Positions 4,201 to 58,902 of a DNA stretch of 58,902 nucleotides are shown here, one piece after another. The stretch lies in IMG/VR virus record IMGVR_UViG_3300020200_000033, positions 1 through 58,902 of that record; one strand, written 5' to 3'. The notes under the pieces are model-generated. The model did not search any database, had not been told where the DNA came from, and saw only the letters and a list, made by a program, of their open reading frames with translations. Both the position numbers and the translations under genes were made by a program. This stretch comes from a virus (Duplodnaviria; Caudoviricetes). Numbering within the stretch: the first letter of the stretch is position 1; each line of letters begins with the position of its first letter.

Positions 4201-5243
4201 AACATTATTATAGATTTTTTGAACCGAGTATAGAACAGCATTCTAATATTCAAGCCAATATGAGTGATTCAACAAATATTATTGATGCTTCATATTCGGT
4301 TCAACTTCAATGCAATAAAGTCACTGTTCCAATATCAAATTTGCAAAAAGCAACAAACAGACTGCAGGCTCTTTGGGTAGCCGACAGTGATACAACCGTT
4401 ACAGCGGTTCTTTTAACTTCAAATCTTACAGCAAATGCTAATGTTGCATATTATAGTGAATATAAAGATAATTTGAATACAAATATTCCATTTCCAGATG
4501 CTGGGTATATTAAAATCAATAATGAGATAATTAAATACAATGAAAGAAGGGGTGGCGCGTTTATGTCCCTTGAAAGAGGGCATTTTCAAACAACTCCAGC
4601 CGCACACAGTATTTATCATGCTAATGGGTCTTTAAATTATTTAAAGATAAGAGAAGTTAAGTATTACGATGTCCAATATCAAAAAACGCCGGCCTTTAAT
4701 GTTAAATCTCCATTCATTACAGCAATTGATATAGATGAGCCAAATTTAATAGAGATTCATAAGTTTATTCCATATTCCTATGGGGCAGAGTTAATTATTT
4801 CCGCATCGGAAAATGTTGATCACGGTAGAATTGTCTTTTTATCTGGCATAGATAGATTAACTAATTACCCATATGCAACATCTATTGCTGGAGTTGCTGT
4901 TGAAATTGAAGATCAAAAGAGCGATATTAAATCACAAACTAAATCAATTGCAGATAGTATTAAAAAATTTGGATTGAAAGATGTAACTATTGAAAGCACC
5001 TTCATCAGTGATGCAATTCACGCTCAAAAAATAGCAGATTTTATTATTGAAAAAACACAAATTCCAGTTCCAATACTAAATGTAAATACTATTTTAATTC
5101 CAAAAATTCAATTGGGGGACCGGGTTAGAATATCTAATCTAACATCTCTTGGTATTGTAAATACAGACTATTGGGTGATATCATATAGTAGATCAATTGG
5201 TGATAATTTTAGTCAACAAATGATATTAAGGCAGGTTTCTTGA
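1266..5243 (+). CDS. Large minor tail/baseplate hub protein with PA14-like and LamG (concanavalin-like) domains
   Basis: PA14-like FDGYYIP..GVKVYLDDVLIL..IRIEFY; LamG FHHIAATYDGTSMSYYVNG..DELYIYN; C-terminal IQLGDRVRI typical of tail hub proteins. Confidence 0.8.
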   Translation: MITVDQYGKDLSTDFNTAIAAKAQKIKPKIVVTWLDSRHLDNLVVTTNDSHANTSYPSIGFYFSKSEVANGNERQSFTWGVAGAKDVNGDIIKADGTWYTMPSLTTSDLANSRIGGNLEFGWWSGSKSSSSASNTYTGYGFAVDPYVDMAFTTRKVNKIRVITSEYYGQISNYEIFVYDGSNNLITNQTGVILPNTYYKDHLITTALSTQNVARIRCYIRSTKNPQDYARIQEIVPLYEEDMTNYVMSVSLNRTRDVHETSLPIGGSETSSASISFDNTTKKFNVFDNNSEFGKYMKKDLKVDIYSGWRIKKPNEDYINNTELTTFLTASANTSATSLIVNDISIFPTGGAGNNFVVILDDNNQSEEYILCSGTTQPNILNVVTRGYAGSSPASHSIESSVVFDIYEYVKSGTFYIDEWDAKSSDMAVGASMQDWTKYLTESTIKYGFLEQNSYVGDAVEALLLRSNFPKANIEKLNTFGRGAILRGAIAGYNFKEESVDRSGNELISSSGLRARFWGMPTNKKNTIAVKDILADALDKNLTKLDLALGQTTFVSPTYVNLSKNISTSTSNALQLSNYSFVGQDNNTYIEYFNGVFDGYYIPRSSGNQAIVIYIESGGVKVYLDDVLILNKFFMHEAITRLQSTTVNLTAGVPRKIRIEFYHAHNNSLGSSSFSIALYKFITATAAETIVTAAECVTIVPMDSIGVRNGSNNFATADAYLMRNNGIYINDPKLSQASGLNLSSNISTDKSVLLESNAYIRIPNHESYNFTNSNASLYTGKWSVEFFGKFSNSSFSNDGEYISTWSNSSPTNGFELYSNSTSHGFKIKTLSSNTVITETASSNIALQNNTFHHIAATYDGTSMSYYVNGDLKSNVVLTGTPISFTGDITIGGRGASYVANTGESAPATIRSFTADELYIYNTCLKTKDIKNRYAEAKIQPLTRFAFLYGNDRSIRELLNDITFAELGRVYINEFNNAVYEHYYRFFEPSIEQHSNIQANMSDSTNIIDASYSVQLQCNKVTVPISNLQKATNRLQALWVADSDTTVTAVLLTSNLTANANVAYYSEYKDNLNTNIPFPDAGYIKINNEIIKYNERRGGAFMSLERGHFQTTPAAHSIYHANGSLNYLKIREVKYYDVQYQKTPAFNVKSPFITAIDIDEPNLIEIHKFIPYSYGAELIISASENVDHGRIVFLSGIDRLTNYPYATSIAGVAVEIEDQKSDIKSQTKSIADSIKKFGLKDVTIESTFISDAIHAQKIADFIIEKTQIPVPILNVNTILIPKIQLGDRVRISNLTSLGIVNTDYWVISYSRSIGDNFSQQMILRQVS

Positions 5244-13765: not shown

Positions 13766-14305
13766 ATGAAACACGTTAACAAAGCGATTGTGATGGACCT
13801 TGATGGTGTCATTGCTGACATCGCAACTTCGCTAGAAGATGTTTTATTTGCCCTAGGTGATATAAAAGAAGGCAATTTTCAGGAATGGATTATTGGGAAT
13901 ACCAAGAATAAGGATATTCTAAAAATTTATAATGATCCATTATTTTGGAAAAATATGAAACCCTACTTTGATGCGTGGCATCAGGTAAACTACTGGTTCA
14001 GTCTTGGTTATGCAATTAATGTTATTACTGCCAGAAGGCAGCCGAATGCCGTACAAGAGACACTTCCTTGGTTGGAAAATTGGAACATAAATACTGCTAT
14101 GCCAATCTTTTGTGATTTGGGTGAAAAGATTAACTATATTCAAAAAATTGACCCAATTTTTGTTGTAGAGGACAATCCATTTGAAATTGAAATAATAGAA
14201 GCATCGGGGGTGAAATGCTATTTAAGGGCACAATTTTATAACCAAAAATATTGGAATGATTTTAATACCATTGAGTCACTATTTGAAATTAATCTGGAGG
14301 ATTAG
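13766..14305 (+). CDS. HAD-family 5'(3')-nucleotidase
   Basis: MDLDGVIAD, VITAR, VEDNP motifs. Confidence 0.8.
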   Translation: MKHVNKAIVMDLDGVIADIATSLEDVLFALGDIKEGNFQEWIIGNTKNKDILKIYNDPLFWKNMKPYFDAWHQVNYWFSLGYAINVITARRQPNAVQETLPWLENWNINTAMPIFCDLGEKINYIQKIDPIFVVEDNPFEIEIIEASGVKCYLRAQFYNQKYWNDFNTIESLFEINLED

Positions 14306-30150: not shown

Positions 30151-30576
30151 ATGGAAAACGAACAAGAACAGGAACAGCAAATGACCGACCAACAAGAAAG
30201 GGATAGCATTATGCAAAATGATGTATCTTCATCTGACGATTTTACTATCGTCAATGAAGAAGATTTGGTTTTTGTTAGGCGAACAAAAAAGCCAGAAGTA
30301 AAACTTTACTTTGATGGTGGTACTTATTTGACTAATTATCCACATCACCGTGATGGTTGGACAAAAGCTGATTGGGATTTTTATGCTTCGCTTGTGCGAA
30401 TGAAAGTCGCAAGGAATACGCGAAAAGACAAACTTACGGTTCTTGATGACATCAAGGAATTCCGTATGATACCAACAAAAGAAGCAAATGAGCTTTGCCA
30501 ATACCTTTATGACACAGATTTGCTTTTTGTTGTTTATGAAGGTGATGAAATCAAAAGGAAAAGCCTTGGAAACTGA
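30151..30576 (+). CDS. Hypothetical protein sharing an N-terminal FxIVNExDLxF motif with cassette proteins
   Basis: DDFTIVNEEDLVFVRR. Confidence 0.7.
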   Translation: MENEQEQEQQMTDQQERDSIMQNDVSSSDDFTIVNEEDLVFVRRTKKPEVKLYFDGGTYLTNYPHHRDGWTKADWDFYASLVRMKVARNTRKDKLTVLDDIKEFRMIPTKEANELCQYLYDTDLLFVVYEGDEIKRKSLGN

Positions 30577-31754: not shown

Positions 31755-31828
31755 GCTGCCATAGCTCAATTGGATAGAGCAATAGACTTCTAATCTGTAG
31801 GTTATAGGTTCAAATCCTATTGGCAGCG
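31755..31828 (+). tRNA. tRNA-Arg (UCU)
   Basis: GCTGCCA/TGGCAGC acceptor, GCTC/GAGC D arm, loop CTTCTAA, T arm ATAGG-TTCAAAT-CCTAT. Confidence 0.93.
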
Positions 31829-31874
31829 CAAAAGATCTCCTATCAATAATGGTAGGGAAAAACAAAGGAAAAAT

Positions 31875-38132: not shown

Positions 38133-39755
38133 ATGAAATACATCAGGATATCGAATAAGTCAGCCGGGGTTAATAGACTGCATTTGGAAAAACTTGGTCT
38201 TTCAACCAAAAGGTCAGACCCAGATACAATTGGTCAATTTGGCTCAGGTATTAAATATGCCCCAATCTCAGCATTGAGAATGAATATTGATTTTGTATTT
38301 GTTGGCTTTGACGACAAGGGTGATTATCAACTTAGATATAGATCAAGAGAAGAAGATGGAATTCAATGCGTTGTGTATGATTATGACACATATGTAAAAG
38401 AATCTTCTTTTACTATTGATGCTGGTACTTTGAGTTGGGATAGCGAATGGCAAATTTATCGTGAAGTTATCTCTAATGCCAAAGATAACGGTGAATGGCG
38501 CAAAGAACTTGTTGACGGAATTAAACAAGTTCCTTATGAATTTGCTGTATATATTCGTGCAACACCGAATATGTTTAAAATTTATAATGATCATGAAATA
38601 TATTTCTCTGAGAACAGAGAAGTCATTTATGACTGTGAATATAACGGGGTATCATTTCTTAAAAAGTATGATATGACTGAACGAATCTATCACAAGACAG
38701 TGTTGGTTCACAAATATAATGACAATGACAGAATTAGTTTGTTTGACTATTGCCTTAAAAATGCAGAAATGAATGAAGAGCGCGCTCTGAAATATCCTAA
38801 TACTGAGCGTGTCAAGATTTCAAAAGCTATTGCCCAGTGTCAAGATAAGGATCTAATTAAAAATTATTTGTTGGATAAGGTCATTAATTATAATCTAATT
38901 GAATTTACAGAGATTAGTGAAATTCATTGGGCATACACTTCGCCATCTAAATTGTGGAAAGAATGTTTTCACGAAGTTAATGGGAAAAATGCAGTAATCG
39001 TTTCACCACAGCAAGCACTAATTGCTGGCTTTATTTCTTTGGTAAAGACTGCTGGCAAAAGACCAATTGTTGTTACGACAAATGCTGCTTTTATATTTCT
39101 AACAATAGGTTGTGCTATTGACAAAGGTGAAGATTGTATCTCCGAAAGCGCTAAGTTCGATATCGAAGAAGATGTTGATCAATATCCAAAACTTGTTGAA
39201 GCAATGAAGATTGCATCATTTTTTGAACCGGGACTAGGTGAAATGCTGAATCCACTTGCTGTGTTTAAACCAAATGAAGAAGTATCTATTGAGGGCATTA
39301 CAATTAATATGTCAAGCAAGGAAGAAAGAAAAATTTTGATTTCTAAAGACTTGGCAGAGAACGGTACAATCAAAGCAATATTGGCAACAATAATTCATGA
39401 ATATGACCACTATTCAAGTGGTATTACTGATAGTATGTTCCGTGAGTTCCGCAATTTGGCAGACAAAAGATTAAGTCATCTTATGTTACAACTTTACAAG
39501 GAGACTCCGATTTCTCTCCATAAAGGTGAAATTAAAATTAAAACAATAGATTTGCCTTTGTATGGAACTCTGGATTATGTCATAGAATACCTACCAAATT
39601 TCGGTTGGCATTTAGTTCGTATTGGCAAGTTACTATTTAGGTTGGATTCAAACCACATTATTGATTCAAAATCAGGCGTATGTTCTGTTGATGAATCAGG
39701 TGAACATTTTATCATCAAAGTTCCACGAGATTCACAAATTAAAAGGGTGGGCTAA
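38133..39755 (+). CDS. GHKL-type ATPase (permuted motif order) fused to an HExxH zincin-like domain
   Basis: LGLSTK..IGQFGSGIK precedes REVISNAKD; TIIHEYDH near the C-terminus. Confidence 0.75.
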   Translation: MKYIRISNKSAGVNRLHLEKLGLSTKRSDPDTIGQFGSGIKYAPISALRMNIDFVFVGFDDKGDYQLRYRSREEDGIQCVVYDYDTYVKESSFTIDAGTLSWDSEWQIYREVISNAKDNGEWRKELVDGIKQVPYEFAVYIRATPNMFKIYNDHEIYFSENREVIYDCEYNGVSFLKKYDMTERIYHKTVLVHKYNDNDRISLFDYCLKNAEMNEERALKYPNTERVKISKAIAQCQDKDLIKNYLLDKVINYNLIEFTEISEIHWAYTSPSKLWKECFHEVNGKNAVIVSPQQALIAGFISLVKTAGKRPIVVTTNAAFIFLTIGCAIDKGEDCISESAKFDIEEDVDQYPKLVEAMKIASFFEPGLGEMLNPLAVFKPNEEVSIEGITINMSSKEERKILISKDLAENGTIKAILATIIHEYDHYSSGITDSMFREFRNLADKRLSHLMLQLYKETPISLHKGEIKIKTIDLPLYGTLDYVIEYLPNFGWHLVRIGKLLFRLDSNHIIDSKSGVCSVDESGEHFIIKVPRDSQIKRVG

Positions 39756-41443: not shown

Positions 41444-41944
41444 ATGGGATATTATGTCCGAATTGACGAGCACGACTTTAAAATTGCAAAGAAAGACTTT
41501 AAAAAAGCATATGAAGCGTGTGTTGCTCTAAACGATAGAGATGATTTAAAGTCAGGTGGTGGGGGAAGTTTTACTCTGCCAAATGGTAAAGCAATGAAAT
41601 ATGGTGATCCTCGACCAAAAGGTATGAGTTATCATCCAATGAAATGGTTTAGTTGGATGGAACCTAATTATCCAGAAATTTGTAAAACACTAAACGATAT
41701 ATTGGATGCACTTGGCTTTGAAACTGATTATGATAATAAAGGCAATATTATCGGCCTTGCTTATGATAACAAAGTTGGTGATGAGACATATTTTCTCCAA
41801 GCAATTGCTCCATTTGTAAAAACGGGATCGTTTATTACTTGGGTTGGAGAAGATGATACATATTGGAAGCAGATATTTAATGGTAAAAAAATGATAACAA
41901 AGACTGGACGTGTGGTATACGAAAAAGTATTAGATGACGAATAA
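41444..41944 (+). CDS. Conserved phage hypothetical protein
   Basis: MGY..WFSWM..IAPFVKTGSFITWVGED. Confidence 0.72.
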   Translation: MGYYVRIDEHDFKIAKKDFKKAYEACVALNDRDDLKSGGGGSFTLPNGKAMKYGDPRPKGMSYHPMKWFSWMEPNYPEICKTLNDILDALGFETDYDNKGNIIGLAYDNKVGDETYFLQAIAPFVKTGSFITWVGEDDTYWKQIFNGKKMITKTGRVVYEKVLDDE

Positions 41945-41947
41945 GGT

Positions 41948-42123
41948 TTGAAATACAAGCAGACGCTCTCTAACGGCTGAAAAGAGTTTTTGTTTAATCC
42001 CAAAAACTCGTTTTTGCATATTATATAAAAGTGTAGTTGAGTGCACTTTTGCAAACAGAAGTTCTCTAGCTGCTGAAAAGGGTTTTGTGTCGGATTAACA
42101 CAAAACTCGTTCTTGTATTTCAA
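41948..42123 (+). ncRNA. Candidate structured RNA 1 (pseudo-symmetric, kissing loops)
   Basis: 12-bp closing stem, two homologous hairpin pairs with a compensatory change, complementary loops TAATCC/GGATTA; G-U pairs favour the + strand. Confidence 0.65.
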
Positions 42124-42176
42124 TAATAAGAGCTATGCGGAATAAGTGAATGCGAGACATTCGTTTCCGTATAACT

Positions 42177-42386
42177 TTTATTAGTATTATTGGTTAGAGA
42201 TAGGCTACGGTATCCCTTTCAACCTTAAGGAAATTGTGCATTATTATATGTCCCCGAATTTATGTTGTTCTGATTCGGGTATCCACTCCCCTTATGGAAA
42301 TGGCAGTATAATAATGTCAAGCTACCTTTAACCGTTGTGGTTAAGCAAACAATTTCTGCTTATCTCTAGCCAATAGTGTTAATAAA
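42177..42386 (+). ncRNA. Candidate structured RNA 2 (29-bp closing stem, multibranch)
   Basis: 42177-42205 pairs with 42358-42386 with no mismatch (5 G-U); nested internal stems. Confidence 0.65.
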
Positions 42387-42398
42387 GAAAGGAATATT

Positions 42399-42635
42399 AT
42401 GGCAAAAAGCGAATCAATGGCTCTATTAGAAATAATGGAGATTGTATCTATGCCGGGTGAAATATATTCAGATGGCGATTGTTTAGATATGATCATTAAT
42501 GTTCTAGAAGAAGCCGGCCTTCCTGTAAAGGAAGAGATGAAAAGAATGCAAGAAGAATTTAGAAAGAATCAAGAATTAAAATGGGAAAATTTGGAACGGG
42601 AAGAAATCGTCAGGAAACTACAAGGAAGTAAATAA
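42399..42635 (+). CDS. Hypothetical protein
   Basis: AAGGA RBS; YSDGDCLD. Confidence 0.68.
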   Translation: MAKSESMALLEIMEIVSMPGEIYSDGDCLDMIINVLEEAGLPVKEEMKRMQEEFRKNQELKWENLEREEIVRKLQGSK

Positions 42636-51655: not shown

Positions 51656-51705
51656 TTCCGTAAGGAATTGACATAGCCTATTCGCAAGTCTAAGAATAAA
51701 GAATT

Positions 51706-51737
51706 GGGTGGGGAGAAATCTCCACCCTTTTTCTTTT
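51706..51737 (+). terminator. Intrinsic terminator
   Basis: GGGTGGGGA-GAAA-TCTCCACCC-TTTTTCTTTT. Confidence 0.88.
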
Positions 51738-52191
51738 GTATTGTGTCGAGTCCCGGATAAAACATTAGCTAAAACGCGATCTTTTTTTTTATTTTACAAC
51801 GGTGTAATATTACACTGTAATTTTACCGGCCATAAGGATAACCATAAAGATGAAATGTAAAATTACCAATTGGATAAAGGTTCACAACGAGCTTACCAAA
51901 TTGATTAGGATAAAGATTATTAAATTGTTGAGAGCCGGTGTAATATTACGATGGTTGTAATGTTACGGAAGCGTAACATTACACCCACGAAACATTACAT
52001 AAAGTATTCCATAAAGGTAATATTACCGCTAAGGAATAAGCACACTAAAAGTCTAAAAGAATGCTGTATTATTACCGTTGGTAATATTACGCTGGTTCGC
52101 ACAAAAAAAATCGGCCGGCGTAACTTTACGATCGTGTAAGTCAACGCCGGGGCAGTTGTGGTACGGGGCAGTTATGGTACACCGACAGAGC

Positions 52192-52264
52192 AAAAAAAAA
52201 TCGCCTAGCGATTGCGTAGTACAAGCGTGGTTAGTGCTTGTAAAACTACGCAACCGCTAGACGA
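52192..52264 (-). terminator. Long hairpin terminator of cassette 2
   Basis: 20-bp stem with G-U pairs on the minus strand followed by T9. Confidence 0.75.
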
Positions 52265-52363
52265 CCTGCTGTTGCCACCCAAAGGCTATGTCGGTTGCCA
52301 ACCCGACTAGTACTAAGAGCCGTAAGACGTTATCTTACAGAGATGTTAGCAATCGCTAGACGG

Positions 52364-52672
52364 TCACTTGCGTGAGCGTGAACGCAGACGCACGGTAGGG
52401 ATACCGTCGACCGTGAACTTGATGTCCACGACGACCCCCGCCTGCTTGCCTGCTGAGCGCAACTGTGCCGACACCGTAGCCTTACGGCTCTTGTCGGTCA
52501 AGTCAACACGCAACTTCTTGATTGTCAAAACTTGCCCTGGGGTAAGTTTTCCAATCATCGCAACGATGGCGGGGTCGGCTTGCGACTTCCTGCCACGGCG
52601 AGCGAAGTTGAGTTCGCTCTCGTTCACAATCTCAAACTCGTGGTCGTCAGCGTTGCCCGTGTTCTTGGACAT
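52364..52672 (-). CDS. Cassette 2: small basic RGRKS-family protein
   Basis: EFEIVNESELNFARRGRKS..KATVSAQLRSAGKQAG..GIPTV; GAAAGG RBS. Confidence 0.8.
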   Translation of the reverse strand: MSKNTGNADDHEFEIVNESELNFARRGRKSQADPAIVAMIGKLTPGQVLTIKKLRVDLTDKSRKATVSAQLRSAGKQAGVVVDIKFTVDGIPTVRLRSRSRK

Positions 52673-52921
52673 CGTTGTAACCTTTCGTGTGAGTAAGGGA
52701 ACTAACGGATAAGAACAGTAGTACCACTACTGCCCCTTGCTGTAAGTTTTGGTAGCCGTGTTCGTTACCTTACACGGCACTAGGGTTCGCTGACTGCCTA
52801 GCAATCCCACACTTGTGGTAAAGTTACCACACCATCACACCACGACCTAGCCGATGCTCGGCGGTAAAGTTACCGCCCGCCTACTAGGTTGACCGTGGTA
52901 CGGGTCAAGATGGCAAGAGCC

Positions 52922-52965
52922 ATTCTATCAGCCGATTGGCGAACCCCAACACGAACAGACGTTCG
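52922..52965 (-). promoter_or_regulatory. Cassette 2 promoter with LexA (SOS) box
   Basis: CGAACAGACGTTCG (52952-52965)-TG-TTGGGG-N16-TAGAAT. Confidence 0.72.
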
Positions 52966-53211
52966 CAAAAGAACCCATAAAGTTGACTGATTAGGTCGGG
53001 TATTAGCTGAAAGATTGGATTAGATAATGATCGTAAAGTAGCACGGCCGTAAAATTACGTTTGATTTCATAAAAGTTTTCCGGCCGTAAGATTACATTAG
53101 AATCGCGTACTCAAGTAATCTTACATGTGTGTATTGTTACAGTGGGCGTAATCTTACAGTCAGTGTAAGATTACGCCCCCCGTAATATTACCGAAAAATT
53201 AGGCGTAAGAA

Positions 53212-53243
53212 TACTCCCAGCGCCTGCCACTAGCGCTGGGAGT
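53212..53243 (-). terminator. Hairpin terminator of cassette 3
   Basis: TACTCCCAGCGC..GCGCTGGGAGTA just past the stop. Confidence 0.7.
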
Positions 53244-53263
53244 AAACTTACAGCCTTGCCAGA

Positions 53264-53551
53264 TTAGGCGAGAGTCACTTGGGGGATACCTGACGGACTC
53301 CACCCAATGCGAACCTTCTTACCTGCCTGCTTGCCTGCCTGACGGATAGTGGCACTGTGCTTTGCCTTCTCCGTTTTTGCCTTCGGGCTATTCGGGCTCA
53401 CTGCCATTGACTTTATGACTAGTGCCTTACCTTTGGTGAGGGATGAGATACCCTTCACCAATTCTGGGGATACTTGGGACTTGCGCCCACGCTTTGAGAA
53501 TTGTAGCGAGTCTTCACTCACTACCTCAAAGTCATCCTTACTCGTTGCCAT
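53264..53551 (-). CDS. Cassette 3: small basic RGRKS-family protein
   Basis: DFEVVSEDSLQFSKRGRKS..SATIRQAGKQAG..GIPQV; GAGGAG RBS. Confidence 0.8.
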   Translation of the reverse strand: MATSKDDFEVVSEDSLQFSKRGRKSQVSPELVKGISSLTKGKALVIKSMAVSPNSPKAKTEKAKHSATIRQAGKQAGKKVRIGWSPSGIPQVTLA

Positions 53552-53606
53552 TGTTGCCTTCTCCTCTGGAACCCTACTTCTTTTTCGGGCTCCGTTGTTA
53601 GATACC

Positions 53607-53635
53607 AAACTACTCCCGATACCGAACCTTTGCTA
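53607..53635 (-). promoter_or_regulatory. Cassette 3 promoter
   Basis: TAGCAA-N17-TAGTTT; near-consensus SOS box CGAACAAGTGTTTG at 53760-53773. Confidence 0.55.
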
Positions 53636-54006
53636 TTGGAGCGTCAGTCAGTACCCCCAAAAACCCCAATAAAAACAAGGGTTTTTGAGAGTGTGCCAAA
53701 AGTCACACCGAATTGGTTGTGTAGTTTTAGGCAAGTTGGAAAACCTACGCAGTCAATGGCGAACAAGTGTTTGCCACCATAAAGTAGCATTGTCGTAAAA
53801 TTACTTAGGTATTGGTTTCATAAAGTTTCCCGGCTGTAAAGTTACATAAACATACTCAATTTTCCCTGTATGATCGTAATGTTACTGAGGGCGTAACTTT
53901 ACGAACTCGTAAAGTTACGCCCGCGTAATATTACTTGATGACAGGCTGTAAAATTACGCCGGGGCTGGTTGCCCAACTTTGACGTAACTTTACTAGGCGA
54001 GTAACT

Positions 54007-54438
54007 TTACTCGGCTGTAACTTCTACTTCTGCCAAGCCCTTGATATATTGGTCGCACATCACCCAAAGAGTGTGCGTATTGTTACACTCATCACAGTCG
54101 CAACCCTGAGCGTACTTCTCAAACAGACTATGCCAAGTGTTCAGCATATCCGCAAACATCATCAGGTAAGAATACTCACGTGTCAGATTAGTACCGCCTT
54201 CGTTGGCGTGGTTCGTTGCGAATGTTAGCAATCCACGACGGTAGAAGTCTGCCCGTACCCGCTTGTCGTGTTCGTCAGGTTGGATATTCCAGATACCTAG
54301 GCGTAAACTTACGTGCCTAGCGTACTCACCTACTTCACGTCCGCACTCACGCACGGCTAGACGGAACTCCGTCTGTGTAAGCGGTCGGATGAAGTACGGT
54401 TCGTCGGGGTTCGGGCTGATTGGGTTGTCGTTGTTCAC
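54007..54438 (-). CDS. Cassette 4: helical protein with CDCDEC motif
   Basis: AAGGA RBS, own promoter, stop codon inside a GTAA box. Confidence 0.75.
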   Translation of the reverse strand: MNNDNPISPNPDEPYFIRPLTQTEFRLAVRECGREVGEYARHVSLRLGIWNIQPDEHDKRVRADFYRRGLLTFATNHANEGGTNLTREYSYLMMFADMLNTWHSLFEKYAQGCDCDECNNTHTLWVMCDQYIKGLAEVEVTAE

Positions 54439-54488
54439 TTGTGTATCCTTACGTGAGCCATATCATCGGCGGGGTTGCCGACGGGTTC

Positions 54489-54535
54489 AGTCTACCACCC
54501 CCCCGGACGCGTTCCAACAGTCCCAAGAATGGTAC
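54489..54535 (-). promoter_or_regulatory. Cassette 4 promoter with RTMCCA-N4-TGGKAY operator
   Basis: GTACCATTCTTGGGAC-TG-TTGGAA-N17-TAGACT. Confidence 0.75.
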
Positions 54536-54735
54536 TTTGTATTATTACATTAGATCATCTACCATAAAGATTTGGCCATTGTAATGTTACAATTGTGTAC
54601 TCCATAATGTTTATAAATGCGTAATATTACTACGGGCGTAAGATTTCAAAACCCCCAAATCTTACGCCCGCGTAATATTACAGTGCATAGAATGTAAAGT
54701 TACACCGGGGACTAAGGATTAGTTTTGGTGTAACT

Positions 54736-55161
54736 TTACTGCGCTGTAATGATTTCAGCGCTTGCGAGTAACTTTACAAAGAACTTTATGGCTTCGCCGT
54801 GAACCATAACGGTAGAACAAACATCACAATCACAGTTTTCTGTATTGTTACACGTCTGTTCAATTTCTTGCATTATCGCAACATTGTCTAGGAAGTTTGC
54901 TAGCACTTCAAGCGTCAATGGTGATTGCGCTGGAATGTTACTGAGTTGCCCGTCAAGTTGTATTCTTACACGACTTATCTTGTGCCCTAAGTCAATGTTG
55001 GCTTCAACCTGAGCGGTAAACTTACGGGTAAGTTCTTCACTCGGTGGTGTCTCGTCTTCGTCAAGTCTGAGTAAGACTACCTCGCAGTAGGTATTGAATG
55101 AACGACCTAGCGCTTGCCATAGCGCTACCCATTCATCACTCGTCATTCGTTCCACTCTCAT
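54736..55161 (-). CDS. Cassette 5: helical protein with CDCDVC motif (likely paralog of cassette 4)
   Basis: MTSDEWVALW..; leader identical to cassette 6. Confidence 0.75.
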   Translation of the reverse strand: MRVERMTSDEWVALWQALGRSFNTYCEVVLLRLDEDETPPSEELTRKFTAQVEANIDLGHKISRVRIQLDGQLSNIPAQSPLTLEVLANFLDNVAIMQEIEQTCNNTENCDCDVCSTVMVHGEAIKFFVKLLASAEIITAQ

Positions 55162-55210
55162 TGGTGTAATCTTTCTGTGAGTATTTCATCGACCCTTTGC
55201 CGATACGTTC

Positions 55211-55257
55211 ATCATAGCAGCCCTAGAAATGGCTTCCAACCATACCAAGAATGGTAC
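55211..55257 (-). promoter_or_regulatory. Cassette 5 promoter with the same operator
   Basis: GTACCATTCTTGGTAT-GG-TTGGAA-N17-TATGAT. Confidence 0.75.
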
Positions 55258-55426
55258 TTTGTATTGTTACGCGATCACCTGATTACATTATCCACCATAA
55301 AGGATTGGCCATTGTAATGTTACAATTGCGCATTCCATAATGTTTATAAGTGTGTAATGTTACTGCGGGTGTAAGGATTGAACCCCCCCAATCCTTACAC
55401 CCGCGTAATATTACCTGGATCAATTT

Positions 55427-55472
55427 GTAAAATTACGCCGGGGCTAGTTTCCTAGCCCTGACGTAACTTTAC
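55427..55472 (-). terminator. Hairpin built from two GTAA boxes after the cassette 6 stop
   Basis: 21-bp stem, GAAA tetraloop on the minus strand; homologues at 53948, 54694, 56985. Confidence 0.6.
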
Positions 55473-55484
55473 TGCGCCGTAAGT

Positions 55485-55856
55485 CTACGAGTTGGCAAGG
55501 CGGGCAATTGCGTCTTTGGCGAGCAAGTACCCTTCTTTCAATTCTTCCGTAGGTGTCAGATTACGGGTTAGGTAAGAGTAGTGCCACTCCACGATGTCTA
55601 GCATCTTGGCGAGATACTCAAACGAGTCTGCCGACCTTGCTGTAACACTACCAGACTCTAACGCTTCCGCAATTTCTACTCCCTGTGTTGCCATCTGTGT
55701 ACCATCAATGGCATCACACAACAATTGCTCAACATTGTCTTTAGTTACGGGGACGTCATTTTCGACGGTCAACGCAACTCTAATTGAGAATTCGGCAACG
55801 AGAAAGCAAGCGAAGCGCATCACCGTTAGCCATTCTTCCTTATTCATTTCTTCCAT
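55485..55856 (-). CDS. Cassette 6: helical protein (likely paralog of cassettes 4-5)
   Basis: MNKEEWLTVM..; leader TACTCACAGAAAGATTACACCAATG shared with cassette 5. Confidence 0.75.
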   Translation of the reverse strand: MEEMNKEEWLTVMRFACFLVAEFSIRVALTVENDVPVTKDNVEQLLCDAIDGTQMATQGVEIAEALESGSVTARSADSFEYLAKMLDIVEWHYSYLTRNLTPTEELKEGYLLAKDAIARLANS

Positions 55857-55905
55857 TGGTGTAATCTTTCTGTGAGTAGTTGTCCTGCCTATTGGCATTA
55901 CCCAT

Positions 55906-55952
55906 AGTCTACCACGCCCGGTAATCGCTTCCAACTATCCCATAAATGGTAT
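55906..55952 (-). promoter_or_regulatory. Cassette 6 promoter with the same operator
   Basis: ATACCATTTATGGGAT-AG-TTGGAA-N17-TAGACT. Confidence 0.75.
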
Positions 55953-56204
55953 TTTGTATTATTACGTTGAGTCAAAAGTAATATTACGTTTACATAAAGA
56001 CACTAAATTTGTAAAGTATCTTGCCTGTAATCTTACGGGTGTGGCGCGGGGGGTTTAGGCGCGCCACACCCGCCCGTAATGTTACCCATAAAGAAGTAAA
56101 TCCACTAAAATTACACAGCCGTAATACATAGCCCGCTTGGTAATATTACATAACATCAAAGCTATGCGCTAACTATTGTTAGCGGGCCGATAACAAAAGT
56201 ATCT

Positions 56205-56251
56205 GTACCATTTTTGGGATAGTTGTGGGTAAGGTTTTGGGCTGGTAGGCT
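56205..56251 (+). promoter_or_regulatory. Cassette 7 promoter with the same operator
   Basis: GTACCATTTTTGGGAT-AG-TTGTGG-N17-TAGGCT. Confidence 0.72.
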
Positions 56252-56300
56252 ATGGGCAACGGATTACGAAGGGTAGTCCCCAAACAAAGGATAAAACAAA

Positions 56301-56741
56301 GTGAAAAAAAAGAAGGTAACAAAGGCAACAACGGCAAAGGCAAAGGCATTTGCCAAAAAACTTAGTACCAAAATTGGTACTGCCAACAAGGTACTAGCAA
56401 AAATCCCAGCCAAACCCATTTACGATAGCGAGTATCTAAACCTTGCTATTGGCAAGGCACTAAATGGAATTGCTATGCCAGCAGACAAAAATGCTCGTGA
56501 GTGGTGCGCCGATAACGGTGTCGTTGTGGATGTACGCAAAATGGTACACGAAAACAAAGAAGGCAAAGTGTCGTGCTTGCGACCCGAAAACACGGTACGC
56601 CAGCGTTTAGAGACACTTAGCAGGGTAGATAGTCGGATAGCAAAAGTGGCGTACTGTCGCAAATTGGTAAATGGTACTAGTGACGCTTGCGACCCAACAA
56701 ACAACGATGCTTACCTAGTTTTCATTTACCTAACTAAGTAA
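56301..56741 (+). CDS. Cassette 7: basic RPENTVR-family protein
   Basis: AREWC..VH.N..VS..RPENTVRQR; AAGGA RBS. Confidence 0.8.
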   Translation: MKKKKVTKATTAKAKAFAKKLSTKIGTANKVLAKIPAKPIYDSEYLNLAIGKALNGIAMPADKNAREWCADNGVVVDVRKMVHENKEGKVSCLRPENTVRQRLETLSRVDSRIAKVAYCRKLVNGTSDACDPTNNDAYLVFIYLTK

Positions 56742-56755
56742 GTAGTACCAAAAAA

Positions 56756-56787
56756 GACACGGGGCAGAAATGCCCCGTGTTTTTTTT
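56756..56787 (+). terminator. Intrinsic (possibly bidirectional) terminator
   Basis: ACACGGGGCA-GAAA-TGCCCCGTGT followed by a T run; A run upstream. Confidence 0.9.
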
Positions 56788-57038
56788 GTATCCTATGATG
56801 TCCCATAAAGGGTACGGCCTTATAAAATTACATTATGTACCACAAATGGTACATAGGTGTAATATTACAAACTCATACTAAAAAAAATAAGAATAGGAAC
56901 CATTCTCAAACGGGTGTGTCAGAAACGCTGGCGCTGTCTGCTCCACCCGCGTAAGATTACCGTGTAATATTACCTATATGGCTTGTAAAGTTACGCCGGG
57001 GCGGGGGGTTCCCCAGCGTAACTTTACTGCTGTGTTAT

Positions 57039-57347
57039 TTAACTGTTGCCCCAATCGCAACCGTTATCGTCATCGGCATCGCAAGTCATCCAGACATACC
57101 CGCATTCGGTAGTCTCATCTTCGGTAAAGTGACAGAACTTGCAGGGTAGCATCCCCTCATCGTAATGGTAGTGCTTGCGATACCAAGCACGGATTCCGAC
57201 TAGCGATGCCATACGCTGACGGTCAGTATCGGTGGATTGCTCTATCCATTCCCACTCTTCGGGTGTAAACTTACTTGCGTCAATGATGACCAAGTTATCG
57301 GCAGAACCATAAGTCCCGTCAGTTGTGAAGTAATATTTCCTAGTCAC
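57039..57347 (-). CDS. Cassette 8: acidic Cys-rich hypothetical protein
   Basis: YFTTDGTYGSADNLVIIDAS..; GAAAGG RBS. Confidence 0.75.
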   Translation of the reverse strand: MTRKYYFTTDGTYGSADNLVIIDASKFTPEEWEWIEQSTDTDRQRMASLVGIRAWYRKHYHYDEGMLPCKFCHFTEDETTECGYVWMTCDADDDNGCDWGNS

Positions 57348-57397
57348 GTTGTAAAGTTACCTTTCTCGTGGTTGAGTGTACCTATTGGCACGCCATT

Positions 57398-57442
57398 AGT
57401 CTATCGGATATCCAATAGCCTTGCAACACGAACAGATGTTCG
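57398..57442 (-). promoter_or_regulatory. Cassette 8 promoter with LexA (SOS) box
   Basis: CGAACAGATGTTCG (57429-57442)-TG-TTGCAA-N17-TAGACT. Confidence 0.8.
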
Positions 57443-57744
57443 CTTTATGGCTGGTTTATGGGAATGATTCTCATAAAGGATTATGCTGTGTAAACTTACA
57501 TTAAAGAAATGAGGCTTATGTAATATTACGCCAGTCAAAAGTATTCTATTAGTATCTCATAAAGAAATAAACACACTAAACTTACCCGATCGTAACCTTA
57601 TAACCCGCTTGGTAACATTACACAGAGCGGGACATAAATGGTACGGGACAAGAATGGTACACTTCACCGATCGCGCCTAGTCGACGTGGCAGAAAGAGAA
57701 AGAACCCCGTACCATTCTCGGTACGGAGTTCGGCTGACTATCGG

Positions 57745-57783
57745 TAGAAACAGAAAGAGCCCGACTCTTGCGAGTCGGGCTCT
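57745..57783 (-). terminator. Intrinsic terminator of cassette 9
   Basis: AGAGCCCGACTC-GCAA-GAGTCGGGCTCT-TTCTGTTTCT. Confidence 0.82.
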
Positions 57784-57801
57784 CTCTTGCGAGAGTGTCT
57801 C

Positions 57802-58278
57802 TCAGTTCTTGCGAACGATAAACACTTTCTTCGCATCAGCATTCTTCGAGTCGGTGGCAGTCGGTGAACCGTTCTGAACGAATCGGACATACGCCAGAGT
57901 CTTCACCAGAGCGAGAGCGTTGCGCTCTTTCTGATTCAGTTTCTTCATCACTTCTTTCTCGCTCGTCAGATTCACGAATGTGAGAATGCGAGCCCTAACC
58001 GTGTTCTCTGGTCGGTTCGTGCTAACACGCTTCACATGGTTCTTGTGAACGATGGAATCCACCGATACCACGAACGCCTCATTAGCGAGACACCACGAAC
58101 GAGCGTCAGTCTCATTCTTCGGCATCACTTTCTTCGTGAAGAGTGCTTCACTCATCGCATTCAGAAGAACGAGCGACACATAGACACGCTTAGAGCGCAT
58201 CTCAGCCCGAACCTCATTCGTCTTGGTGATGACTGAAAGCATCAGTTTCACCCACTCTTTCTTACTCTTCTTACTCAC
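57802..58278 (-). CDS. Cassette 9: basic RPENTVR-family protein (paralog of cassette 7)
   Basis: ARSWC..VHKN..VS..RPENTVRAR; GAGGA RBS. Confidence 0.8.
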   Translation of the reverse strand: MSKKSKKEWVKLMLSVITKTNEVRAEMRSKRVYVSLVLLNAMSEALFTKKVMPKNETDARSWCLANEAFVVSVDSIVHKNHVKRVSTNRPENTVRARILTFVNLTSEKEVMKKLNQKERNALALVKTLAYVRFVQNGSPTATDSKNADAKKVFIVRKN

Positions 58279-58326
58279 TTCGTTATCCTCTCTCTTAGGG
58301 CTCGCCCGTTGCGAACCGTTGAGAGC

Positions 58327-58371
58327 ATTCTAGCCGACCCAGAAGAGCCTTGCTACACGAACGAATGTTCG
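58327..58371 (-). promoter_or_regulatory. Cassette 9 promoter with LexA (SOS) box
   Basis: CGAACGAATGTTCG (58358-58371)-TG-TAGCAA-N17-TAGAAT. Confidence 0.78.
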
Positions 58372-58594
58372 TATGATTACGCATAACTATACGAGCTGAC
58401 GCATAATAATACACTACGCATAAACATACACCGTAATGTATGATTACGCGATCTACCATAAACGGTACATCGGTGTAAGATTACGAATGCGTATTCCATT
58501 TCTGGTATGTACCATTTATGTCCCAACGGGTGCGTCTGCTACGTGAAACTGGGCAGCTCCACCCGCGGTATTATTACATAAAGGTGGATCGGTT

Positions 58595-58750
58595 GTAAAA
58601 TTACATGTTAAAAATGAGACACTCAAGGACACTACAAGGTTTGGTGTTGTAATCTTACATCCATTAAAAATGAGACACTCAAGGACATTATAAGGTTTGG
58701 TGCTGTAATATTACACATACTAAAAATGAGACCATAAACTGTAATGTTAC
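58595..58750. repeat. About 2.6 tandem 54-56-bp repeats, each starting with a GTAA box
   Basis: GTAANNTTAC..TAAAAATGAGACACTCAAGGACAYTAYAAGGTTTGGTGYT. Confidence 0.88.
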
Positions 58751-58828
58751 GCTGGGCGTGTTGGTCGTCAGACTGCGGGCTTGGTGTTGGTCGTCAGATT
58801 GCCCGCTCGACTGAACCCCATAACGCCA

Positions 58829-58864
58829 GAACCCCCGCCTACCCTTGCGGGCAAGCGGGGGTTC
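58829..58864 (-). terminator. Hairpin, probable terminator of a further cassette beyond the window
   Basis: GAACCCCCGC..GCGGGGGTTC with a GCAA loop on the minus strand. Confidence 0.5.
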
Positions 58865-58902
58865 GGGGGGGGGTTGTAGCGGGTGCTACTTGGTGCGGAA
58901 CA

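Follow-up and report, generated by a model that had tools for sequence, protein, structure and literature searches.

A family of structured phage RNAs, often adjoining tRNA genes, with a conserved CCUUUC loop

What is the role of a long, perfectly paired RNA helix that closes just ahead of a phage gene? The question is raised by a 58,902-nucleotide (nt) stretch of viral DNA (Duplodnaviria; Caudoviricetes), the whole of IMG/VR record IMGVR_UViG_3300020200_000033 and referred to here as the window. This record is rated 56% complete, spans 58.9 kb, and has a G+C content of about 35%. As far as about 52 kb, nearly all window genes are on the + strand; among them are genes for a DnaE-type polymerase, a terminase, and the tail. 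A 166-amino-acid (aa) open reading frame (ORF) stops at 41944 and a 78-aa ORF starts at 42399; the 454 nt between them are noncoding and hold the element at 42177–42386 that is the subject of this study. A first-pass annotation, made from the sequence alone, had proposed it as a candidate noncoding RNA (ncRNA). The element proves to be a real structured RNA, with a helix and core conserved in homologues, and it belongs to a family of structured phage RNAs that had not been described before.

Structure and membership of the family

The closing helix had been described as 29 base pairs (bp) with five G-U pairs and no mismatch, and the pair count agrees: 42177–42205 pairs with 42358–42386 through 24 Watson–Crick and five G-U or U-G pairs, with 0 mismatches. 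A wobble between U42176 and G42387 lengthens it to 30 bp. When the window was scanned on both strands for uninterrupted Watson–Crick or G-U helices of at least 18 bp that enclose 80–260 nt, the + strand gave this helix and one 18-bp case, and the − strand gave 0. The 30-bp helix is therefore exceptional within the window.

The predicted fold is similarly uncommon. RNAfold gives the + strand of 42177–42386 a minimum free energy (MFE) of −69.5 kcal/mol, and the z-score against shuffles that the annotation had called for is −7.08, with 0 of 200 dinucleotide shuffles as stable. The − strand is weaker, at −61.3 kcal/mol and z = −5.81. All of the nested stems listed earlier are present in the MFE structure, in which both C/U-rich tracts are single-stranded. 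One of these tracts, CCCUUUC, contains the motif CCUUUC that is common to the family, which upholds the earlier description of unpaired, C/U-rich sequence. The helix was also correctly placed just before the ribosome-binding site (RBS) of the ORF at 42399, as it stops at the G of GAAAGGA, and the separate hairpin said to precede it was found at about 42132–42175. ORFs of 31 aa inside the element are unlikely to be genes, given a 1-nt indel between close relatives (209 nt in locus L060 versus 210 nt in L043).

Known RNA families do not account for the element. A scan of the whole window against Rfam 15 at gathering thresholds returned only two tRNAs and gave no family for the element. A permissive scan of 41800–42600 (E up to 10) placed nothing on the core below E 1, and its best scores (E ~1) were to eukaryotic snoRNA and miRNA models and represent noise. 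Four other members, scanned with E up to 1, matched only through their neighbouring tRNAs. Literature searches on phage mimics of the anti-Shine-Dalgarno (anti-SD) sequence and on tRNA-linked phage RNAs turned up nothing describing the motif; they are no proof of unpublished status, and supplementary motif lists of comparative-genomics papers lay outside them.

Relatives of the element were recovered by several routes. A blastn search of 41900–42450 against GenBank phages gave no match, locus searches with either flanking ORF as a single-protein query recovered no relatives, and tblastn of the 166-aa protein reached only distant Arthrobacter phages. The 540-aa protein encoded at 38133–39755, used as a query, led to 19 related viral loci. 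Queried first with the intergenic region and next with an initial alignment, nhmmer detected the element in L002, L003, L004, and L007, and its 5′ half in L009–L011. The closing helix of L009–L011 is wholly different in sequence, yet is still a perfect 26-bp duplex. L012, L015, and L016 were added by inspection downstream of tRNA-Arg genes. Patterns in International Union of Pure and Applied Chemistry (IUPAC) code, drawn from the conserved junction and requiring CCTTTC, gave 10, 12, and 22 stretches in viral contigs and 42 in metagenome contigs. In bacterial and archaeal contigs (one genome per species) the pattern scan gave five stretches, none with a closing helix. These five (three from SAR86, one from a Bacillota metagenome-assembled genome, and one from Congzhengia) were judged to be chance or coding matches, and under the scanned pattern no family member was seen in cellular genomes.

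After the closing helix, P1, had been extended outward by script from a conserved GC, the family comprised 63 instances and 37 distinct sequences of 123–212 nt, from viral and metagenome contigs. Thirteen pattern-matching loci were excluded from the 37-sequence set. L025, L027, L029, and L038–L042 were left out as apparent chance matches; L059, L068, and L081 match the covariance model but are cut by contig ends; L044 and L048 also fall outside the set. L091 matches the pattern but not the model. The covariance model, R1, was built from 11 sequences (alignment A3). It recognised L017 and L018, contigs from the 540-aa protein search in which the element lies elsewhere in the genome with no tRNA nearby, and it confirmed their relatives L094 and L097–L100, which came from the motif-pattern scan. 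In four records rated 90–100% complete (G001–G004) and in the window record, R1 has exactly one sense-strand match per genome.

Members share a common plan. P1 is followed by two unpaired bases (UA), a junction hairpin (P1a), the junction AAG, a second helix (P2), and then a third (P3) together with one to three further hairpins. P1 has no bulges in any member and ranges from 10 to 30 bp: its uninterrupted run is 26 bp in 11 members, 11 bp in 10, 27 bp in six, 13 bp in three, 17 bp in two, 24 bp in two, and 30, 19, and 10 bp in one each. It is consequently a perfect duplex of 24–30 bp in 20 of the 37 and only 10–13 bp in 14. P1a has a stem of 4–6 bp and a loop of 8–13 nt containing CCUUUC. P2 is 9 bp long, and its 3′ strand runs directly into that of P1; in every member the two helices can stack to give 20 bp or more. 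The junction bases GCUA and UAAG are invariant, and the apical domain (P3 and the further hairpins) varies between clades. The RNA is a three-way junction on a rod, with P1 stacked end-to-end on P2. The parts in the window are as follows.

42132–42175, + strand: upstream hairpin with loop GCGAGAC, outside the family core
42176–42205, + strand: 5′ strand of P1, 30 bp counting U42176–G42387 (family covariation)
42206–42227, + strand: P1a junction hairpin, stem 42206–42211 with 42222–42227, one C-U mismatch in the window
42212–42221, + strand: P1a loop AUCCCUUUCA (RNAfold MFE)
42215–42220, + strand: CCUUUC motif in the P1a loop, anti-SD-like (family conservation; predicted unpaired)
42229–42237, + strand: 5′ strand of P2, GGAAAUUGU, pairing with 42349–42357 (stem GAAATTGT/ACAATTTC)
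42239–42248 with 42307–42316, + strand: P3, stem CATTATTATA/TATAATAATG (inverted repeat I6; MFE)
42253–42279 and 42282–42298, + strand: two hairpins enclosed by P3 (MFE)
42286–42294, + strand: second C-rich loop CUCCCCUUA, in hairpin 42282–42298
Further nested stems in the MFE, + strand: CCCGAATT/GATTCGGG and TCCA/TGGA (RNAfold)
42328–42344, + strand: apical hairpin UUAACC/GGUUAA (MFE; retained in L043, L060, and L069)
42349–42357, + strand: 3′ strand of P2, adjoining P1 with 0 unpaired bases between
42358–42387, + strand: 3′ strand of P1 (helix scan; family covariation)
42387–42401, + strand: Shine-Dalgarno (SD) sequence GAAAGGA and ATG (42399) of the 78-aa ORF, directly 3′ of P1

Covariation among homologues, which the annotation had named as a check, shows that both the closing helix and the core are kept through compensatory changes. 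Pairs were counted in MAFFT alignments, made without fitting to a structure, and compared with a slid control in which pairing partners were moved by 1–3 columns. In A3 (11 sequences), 97.7% of 399 cells are standard pairs, against 40–48% in the slid controls, and 29 of 40 pairs have changed on both sides. In the full alignment, A4 (37 sequences), the figures are 94.0% of 1622 cells, against 41–47%, and 42 of 51 pairs; the structure string came from the sequences' own MFE folds, and is thereby favoured over the slid controls. None of 500 column shuffles of A4 reached any of five measures, a test that is inflated by the relatedness of the sequences, although the margin is still very large. Within A4, P1 is paired in 99.5% of cells, with 24 of 27 pairs changed on both sides, P2 in 100%, with five of nine, and three of four pairs of the P1a stem have changed on both sides. 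One such change in the P1a stem converts GGU/ACC of the window to GGC/GCC in L043.

The annotation had also read the G-U pairs as strand-specific evidence for RNA, and the covariance model agrees, scoring the + strand far above the − strand. R1 gives the window 107.3 bits in the sense direction versus 23.8 in antisense, and L010 164.2 versus 51.6; sense scores span 97–164 bits, compared with 39–53 bits for antisense where antisense passes at all. G-U pairs are conserved, with columns 54/197 being GU in 29 of the 37 sequences and columns 60/191 being UG in 26. Because G-U pairs are conserved and sense scores greatly exceed antisense scores, the structure is better explained as RNA than as DNA, and the strand evidence identifies the element as an RNA with the same sense as the genes.

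Genomic context

A tRNA gene lies within 400 nt upstream in 28 of the 37 members, the upstream sequence being too short to judge in two. Twenty-six of these genes encode tRNA-Arg(UCU), and two have the anticodon UUA. The gap between the end of the tRNA and the first base of P1 is 0–2 nt in 16 members, 9 nt in two, 28 nt in two, and 92–102 nt in eight. Elements flush with tRNA genes always share their orientation, and no CCA is encoded after the tRNA in the tRNA-linked members inspected. In L015, L016, and L077 the tRNA itself starts only 6–8 nt past an ORF stop, and for this reason the series of ORF, tRNA, element, and ORF is regarded there as a tightly packed, co-oriented (polycistronic) unit. 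The two tRNAs with anticodon UUA stand flush with the elements of L053 (− strand, upstream of 5016–5138) and L077 (upstream of 4539–4666); ARAGORN labels them 'tRNA-Stop', and they are possible ochre suppressors.

Further structured or conserved sequence occurs around the tRNA-Arg genes. Mini-elements directly follow tRNA-Arg at L016:9997–10079 (also in L031 and L036) and at L020:14546–14620, each with a closing helix of 6–9 bp around a hairpin whose loop contains CCCCUUUCA. The L016 mini-element has a second hairpin with a UCCCC loop and stands in tandem with a full-size element; model R1 did not detect the mini-elements. A conserved region with TGTATAAT, resembling an extended −10, is found about 115 nt upstream of tRNA-Arg in L012, L058, L062, and L080, and is followed by about 100 nt of conserved noncoding sequence before the tRNA. 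This region may be a dedicated promoter with a further RNA element. The hairpin with loop GCGAGAC, which the window clade has immediately 5′ of the element (42132–42175 in the window), recurs before tRNA-Arg in L003 (~13840–13875) and L007 (~13860–13895; GCUGAGAC in L007). In L003 a T run comes after it, giving the appearance of a terminator set right before the tRNA (tRNA-Arg at 13878–13952).

The element also occurs without a tRNA. In L002, L045, and L064 it begins about 12 nt after an ORF stop, and L017 and L018 similarly have an ORF stop directly upstream. The window, L043, L060, and L069 have no tRNA-Arg at the site, but instead carry two repeats spaced by 96 nt, termed RNA 1, and one hairpin. 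RNA 1 is absent from all other family members. The earlier suggestion of a single RNA of about 440 nt, joining the element to RNA 1, therefore fails, as the RNA 1 repeats accompany the element only in the window and its three closest relatives (L043, L060, and L069) and other contexts are found elsewhere. Since upstream contexts differ in this way (RNA 1 repeats, an ORF stop, or a tRNA), the 210-nt element is best treated as an autonomous module. The tRNA-Arg(UCU) of the window lies at 31755–31829, about 10 kb upstream of the element, and that of L002 is likewise about 10 kb upstream, a placement that implies a rearrangement separating tRNA from element in both. Conversely, tRNA-Arg is followed only by a simple terminator in L019 and by nothing in L018.

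RNA 1 itself, at 41956–42118 in the window, consists of two copies, 96 nt apart, of a unit of about 65 nt. The unit runs from a conserved TCTCTARCKGCTGAAAAG through a terminator-like hairpin with a copy-specific stem to AAAACTCGTTYTTGYAT, and a 12-bp helix between 41948–41959 and 42112–42123 could close the repeat pair. A fragment of the unit is also found just downstream of the 540-aa gene in L003, L004, L016, and L018. The unit at 41956–42118 has no Rfam match.

Downstream of the element the genes are mutually unrelated. The 78-aa ORF of the window and the 121-aa ORF of L018 belong to no Pfam family, and in clade B the gene directly downstream of the element, at L009:14333–14695, encodes a DUF3846 protein (Pfam E = 1.3e-10). 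No single functional class of downstream genes, of the kind that a riboswitch or cis-regulatory leader would have, is seen across the window, L009, and L018. In 26 of the 37 members, P1 is followed by a U-rich stretch and then UAUAUA(C/A)A, more fully UAUAUA(C/A)AA(A)CA, within a region of 20–25 nt before the next RBS (for example, L009, L012, L015, and L046). The window clade lacks this stretch, and the RBS follows P1 directly. The stretch might serve as the tail of a terminator, as a site for RNase E/Y, or as part of a phage promoter. A sigma-70 promoter after P1 was rejected, as the conserved UAUAUA has no consistently spaced −35, and no + strand promoter was found at 41900–42400 of the window. 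The 8 nt after P1 contain one T in the window, 0–1 in the window clade, and 4–7 in many other members. An intrinsic terminator at P1 of the window was accordingly rejected (one T in 8 nt, and no terminator predicted at 42358–42400), while a terminator could hold for members with 4–7 T.

The conserved loop and its possible function

CCUUUC is the one conserved single-stranded motif of the family, with a mean predicted unpaired probability of 0.85, compared with 0.29 for whole elements (39 sequences). In the part of PMC5732282 that describes it, the 16S ribosomal RNA (rRNA) 3′ tail of B. subtilis is given as GAUCACCUCCUUUCU. CCUUUC lies inside the Bacillus-type tail CCUCCUUUCU, and on the tail as given there identity extends to CUCCUUUCU in L018, CUCCUUUC in L002 and L017, and UCCUUUCU in L016. 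Window genes are preceded by ribosome-binding sites of the AAAGG, AAGGA, and GAAAG types, the counts of which are not independent because start codons were picked partly by SD score. A second C-rich hairpin loop is present in 13 of 39 members, the window included. No internal pseudoknot partner for CCUUUC is conserved across the family. The sole recurrent complement to the loop is the downstream SD, with at least 5 nt in about 20 of the 37 members and none in 10, and the loop is unchanged where the downstream SD is GGAGG (L007, L072, and L076) or UAGGAG (L051). Kissing between P1a and P3 loops, towards oligomers, was considered and rejected, as the longest complement averages 2.37 nt versus 2.35 nt when shuffled (38 sequences); complements of 4–5 nt occur only in the subgroup of L009, L010, L011, and L079.

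The reading that we tentatively place first, as a possibility rather than a probability, is that of a trans-acting phage ncRNA whose CCUUUC loop pairs with SD sequences. The element would be transcribed within a polycistronic or tRNA-containing precursor. RNase Z-type 3′ maturation of a tRNA would produce a blunt 5′ end at a fully paired P1, and, given that no CCA is encoded, such a cut could free the 5′ end of the element. In copies with a long P1, such as that of the window, RNase III could free it instead. The CCUUUC loop of the resulting stable RNA would mimic the 16S 3′ tail and pair with SD sequences of the GAAAGG type, and the second C-rich loop, where present, may do likewise. Translation initiation on host or phage mRNAs would thereby be blocked or retuned. 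A stable trans-acting RNA is ranked first because the element moves between unrelated neighbourhoods and keeps junction and apical features that cleavage would not need, and because the mini-copy sometimes stands in tandem with it (L016:9997–10079).

Several points weigh against this proposal. A seed of 6 nt is short, and it would also target the ribosome-binding sites of the phage itself. Most members have CCUUUC without the CCUCC core of the anti-SD, and the Bacillus-type tail may not be that of the host. The invariance of CCUUUC in the 37 aligned sequences arises partly by selection, since the scan patterns required CCTTTC; its presence in L017 and L018, found through protein homology and scored by the model, is the sole independent test. 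Elsewhere in the window, the loop of the window copy finds its best extended complement in a 10-mer at 30196, where about 0.8 such matches are estimated to arise by chance, and no specific target is identified. Lastly, most members have a start codon 12–40 nt beyond the element, an arrangement that fits a role in cis equally well.

Such a cis role is somewhat doubtful. The element would then act within the polycistronic mRNA, with the flush P1, as a 5′ end, shielding the downstream message from 5′-end-dependent RNases, and with the loop modulating the adjacent RBS. This would suit the 16 of 37 members whose P1 starts 0–2 nt beyond a tRNA, the ending of the element 1–40 nt ahead of an RBS and start codon in most, the packing of tRNA and element between co-oriented ORFs with almost no spacer, and the complement of at least 5 nt between loop and downstream SD in about 20 of 37. 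However, at least three downstream genes are unrelated, 10 of 37 members lack a downstream complement of at least 5 nt, and loop and downstream SD do not covary. In the window the SD is at the base of the 30-bp helix, with the loop some 30 bp away, so that contact would presumably require unfolding of a −69 kcal/mol structure. A simple stabiliser, moreover, would not require a conserved junction, P2 sequence, and apical domain. The conserved loop, junction, and apical features exceed the needs of a mere RNase III processing site or transcript-end structure between transcription units, which is an improbable account of the family. In its favour, P1 is a perfect 24–30 bp duplex in 20 of 37 members, P1 and P2 together stack to at least 20 bp in all, U-rich sequence and then UAUAUA follow P1 in 26 of 37, and hairpins of this sort are the classical cleavage sites of phage polycistronic mRNAs, as in T7. 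The perfect 30-bp duplex does make RNase III cleavage of the window copy plausible. Yet P1 is only 10–13 bp in 14 of 37 members, which would need P1–P2 stacking to reach about 20 bp, and cutting by RNase III is for that reason not the defining feature of the family; the window clade, with 0–1 T in the 8 nt after P1, has no intrinsic terminator.

Unlikely, too, is that the RNA is a phage mimic of the 16S 3′ tail, made by tRNA-type processing and with its loop projecting from a rigid duplex, which would serve as a decoy for SD-bearing host mRNAs or for a host factor or defence nuclease that reads the anti-SD. We give little credence, likewise, to a more general decoy or scaffold that binds proteins or ribosomes, in which the tail-like loop would titrate a factor that recognises the anti-SD region, for example an initiation or hibernation factor, a ribosomal protein, or a defence nuclease directed at rRNA. 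The combination of an invariant loop, covarying stems, and invariant junction bases (GCUA and UAAG) is typical of a specific binding site. According to one preprint, ribosomes have reportedly been recovered by pull-down with GOLLD, and sequestration of RpsU is a proposed role of OLE (bioRxiv 10.1101/2024.12.08.627333). Against this, no partner gene co-occurs beside the element, and neither a Ro/TROVE protein nor a reverse transcriptase is found in the window record and three 100%-complete relatives. A DNA-level element (a cruciform, single-strand origin, or packaging signal) or a chance inverted repeat is highly improbable. The − strand does beat its shuffles (z = −5.81), and an inverted repeat is inherent in DNA, but the conserved G-U pairs would become A-C mismatches on the other strand, the sense model scores far above antisense, and the element is flush and always co-oriented with tRNA genes; a chance repeat is ruled out by covariation.

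Known systems share some of these features. RsaE/RoxS and the RNAIII hairpins are Gram-positive regulatory small RNAs, or parts of them, with unpaired C/U-rich loops complementary to SD sequences. The family resembles them in its unpaired C-rich loops complementary to ribosome-binding sites, of which the window copy has two. It differs in having no Rfam match, in being phage-encoded and tRNA-linked, in presenting its loop on a closing helix of 10–30 bp, and in its motif, CCUUUC rather than UCCC/CCCC; target pairing here is predicted only. The RNase III sites of T7 (R1.1 type) and SP82 are simple hairpins with internal loops in phage polycistronic mRNAs. These too are long intergenic duplexes between co-oriented phage genes, as is the window copy with its 30 perfect bp, but the family has in addition a junction hairpin, P2, and an apical domain, and in 14 of 37 members P1 alone is too short for RNase III. 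RNAs C and D of the phage T4 tRNA cluster, and 3′ETS-leuZ, are ncRNAs released from tRNA precursors by tRNA processing. Compared by description only, the 0–2 nt tRNA spacing of the family would fit release of the same kind, although the element also occurs without a tRNA (the window, L002, and L018).

In bacterial Y RNAs, such as YrlA with Rsr/Ro60, paired ends close a multibranch domain, and some are phage-encoded. The long stem formed here by the 5′ and 3′ ends recalls that design. A Y RNA was nonetheless rejected as an identity: TROVE/Ro60 (PF05731) is found in 0 of 4 records (G000–G003, three of them 100% complete), with controls positive in 2 of 14 genomes. The tRNA-like module of Y RNAs is also lacking, as ARAGORN calls only two true tRNAs in the window and no tRNA-clan Rfam match falls on the element. 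A retron msr-msd was similarly rejected, reverse transcriptase PF00078 being found in 0 of the 4 records.

The nearest analogues appear to be GOLLD and ROOL. These are RNAs of phages and prophages, 'often near tRNA islands' and of unexplained function, with GOLLD members often longer than 800 nt and one GOLLD directly downstream of tRNA-Met, according to those portions of the preprint that treat them (bioRxiv 10.1101/2024.12.08.627333). Like them, the family is phage-encoded, highly structured, covariation-supported, and tRNA-adjacent (in 28 of 37 members, though not in the window copy). Unlike them, it is only 123–212 nt long, folds as a simple rod with a three-way junction and not as a multi-pseudoknot structure, and has no Rfam match, and the loop-loop complementarity test for oligomers was negative.

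Distal region of the window and wider significance

One other region of the window stands apart from the rest. At 51700–58902 the G+C content rises from about 35% to 43–51%, and the longest ORF is at most 175 aa in the standard code, or about 240 aa with any one stop read through. Short tandem repeats and repeated TGTAATATTACA-like palindromes are present. This region may be a noncoding or regulatory end region, or foreign DNA.

The broader interest of the element lies in what it may reveal about phage control of translation. GOLLD and ROOL exemplify a recognised class, that of structured phage RNAs adjacent to tRNA genes and of unexplained function, and this family is a small, simple, and very well-supported addition to it. 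The fold is supported by 40–51 paired positions in the alignments, and the six-base loop, which resembles the sequence with which the ribosome docks mRNA, offers a functional handle. At about 130–210 nt, members are small enough for direct probing, mutation, and expression. The family would also illustrate how tRNA genes can serve as processing handles for an adjacent ncRNA in phage polycistronic transcripts. If the 16S-tail decoy reading is true, the phage would reprogram or protect translation initiation during infection. More generally, if the loop pairs with ribosome-binding sites, or decoys a reader of the anti-SD, the family would represent a new phage route to seize or shield translation.

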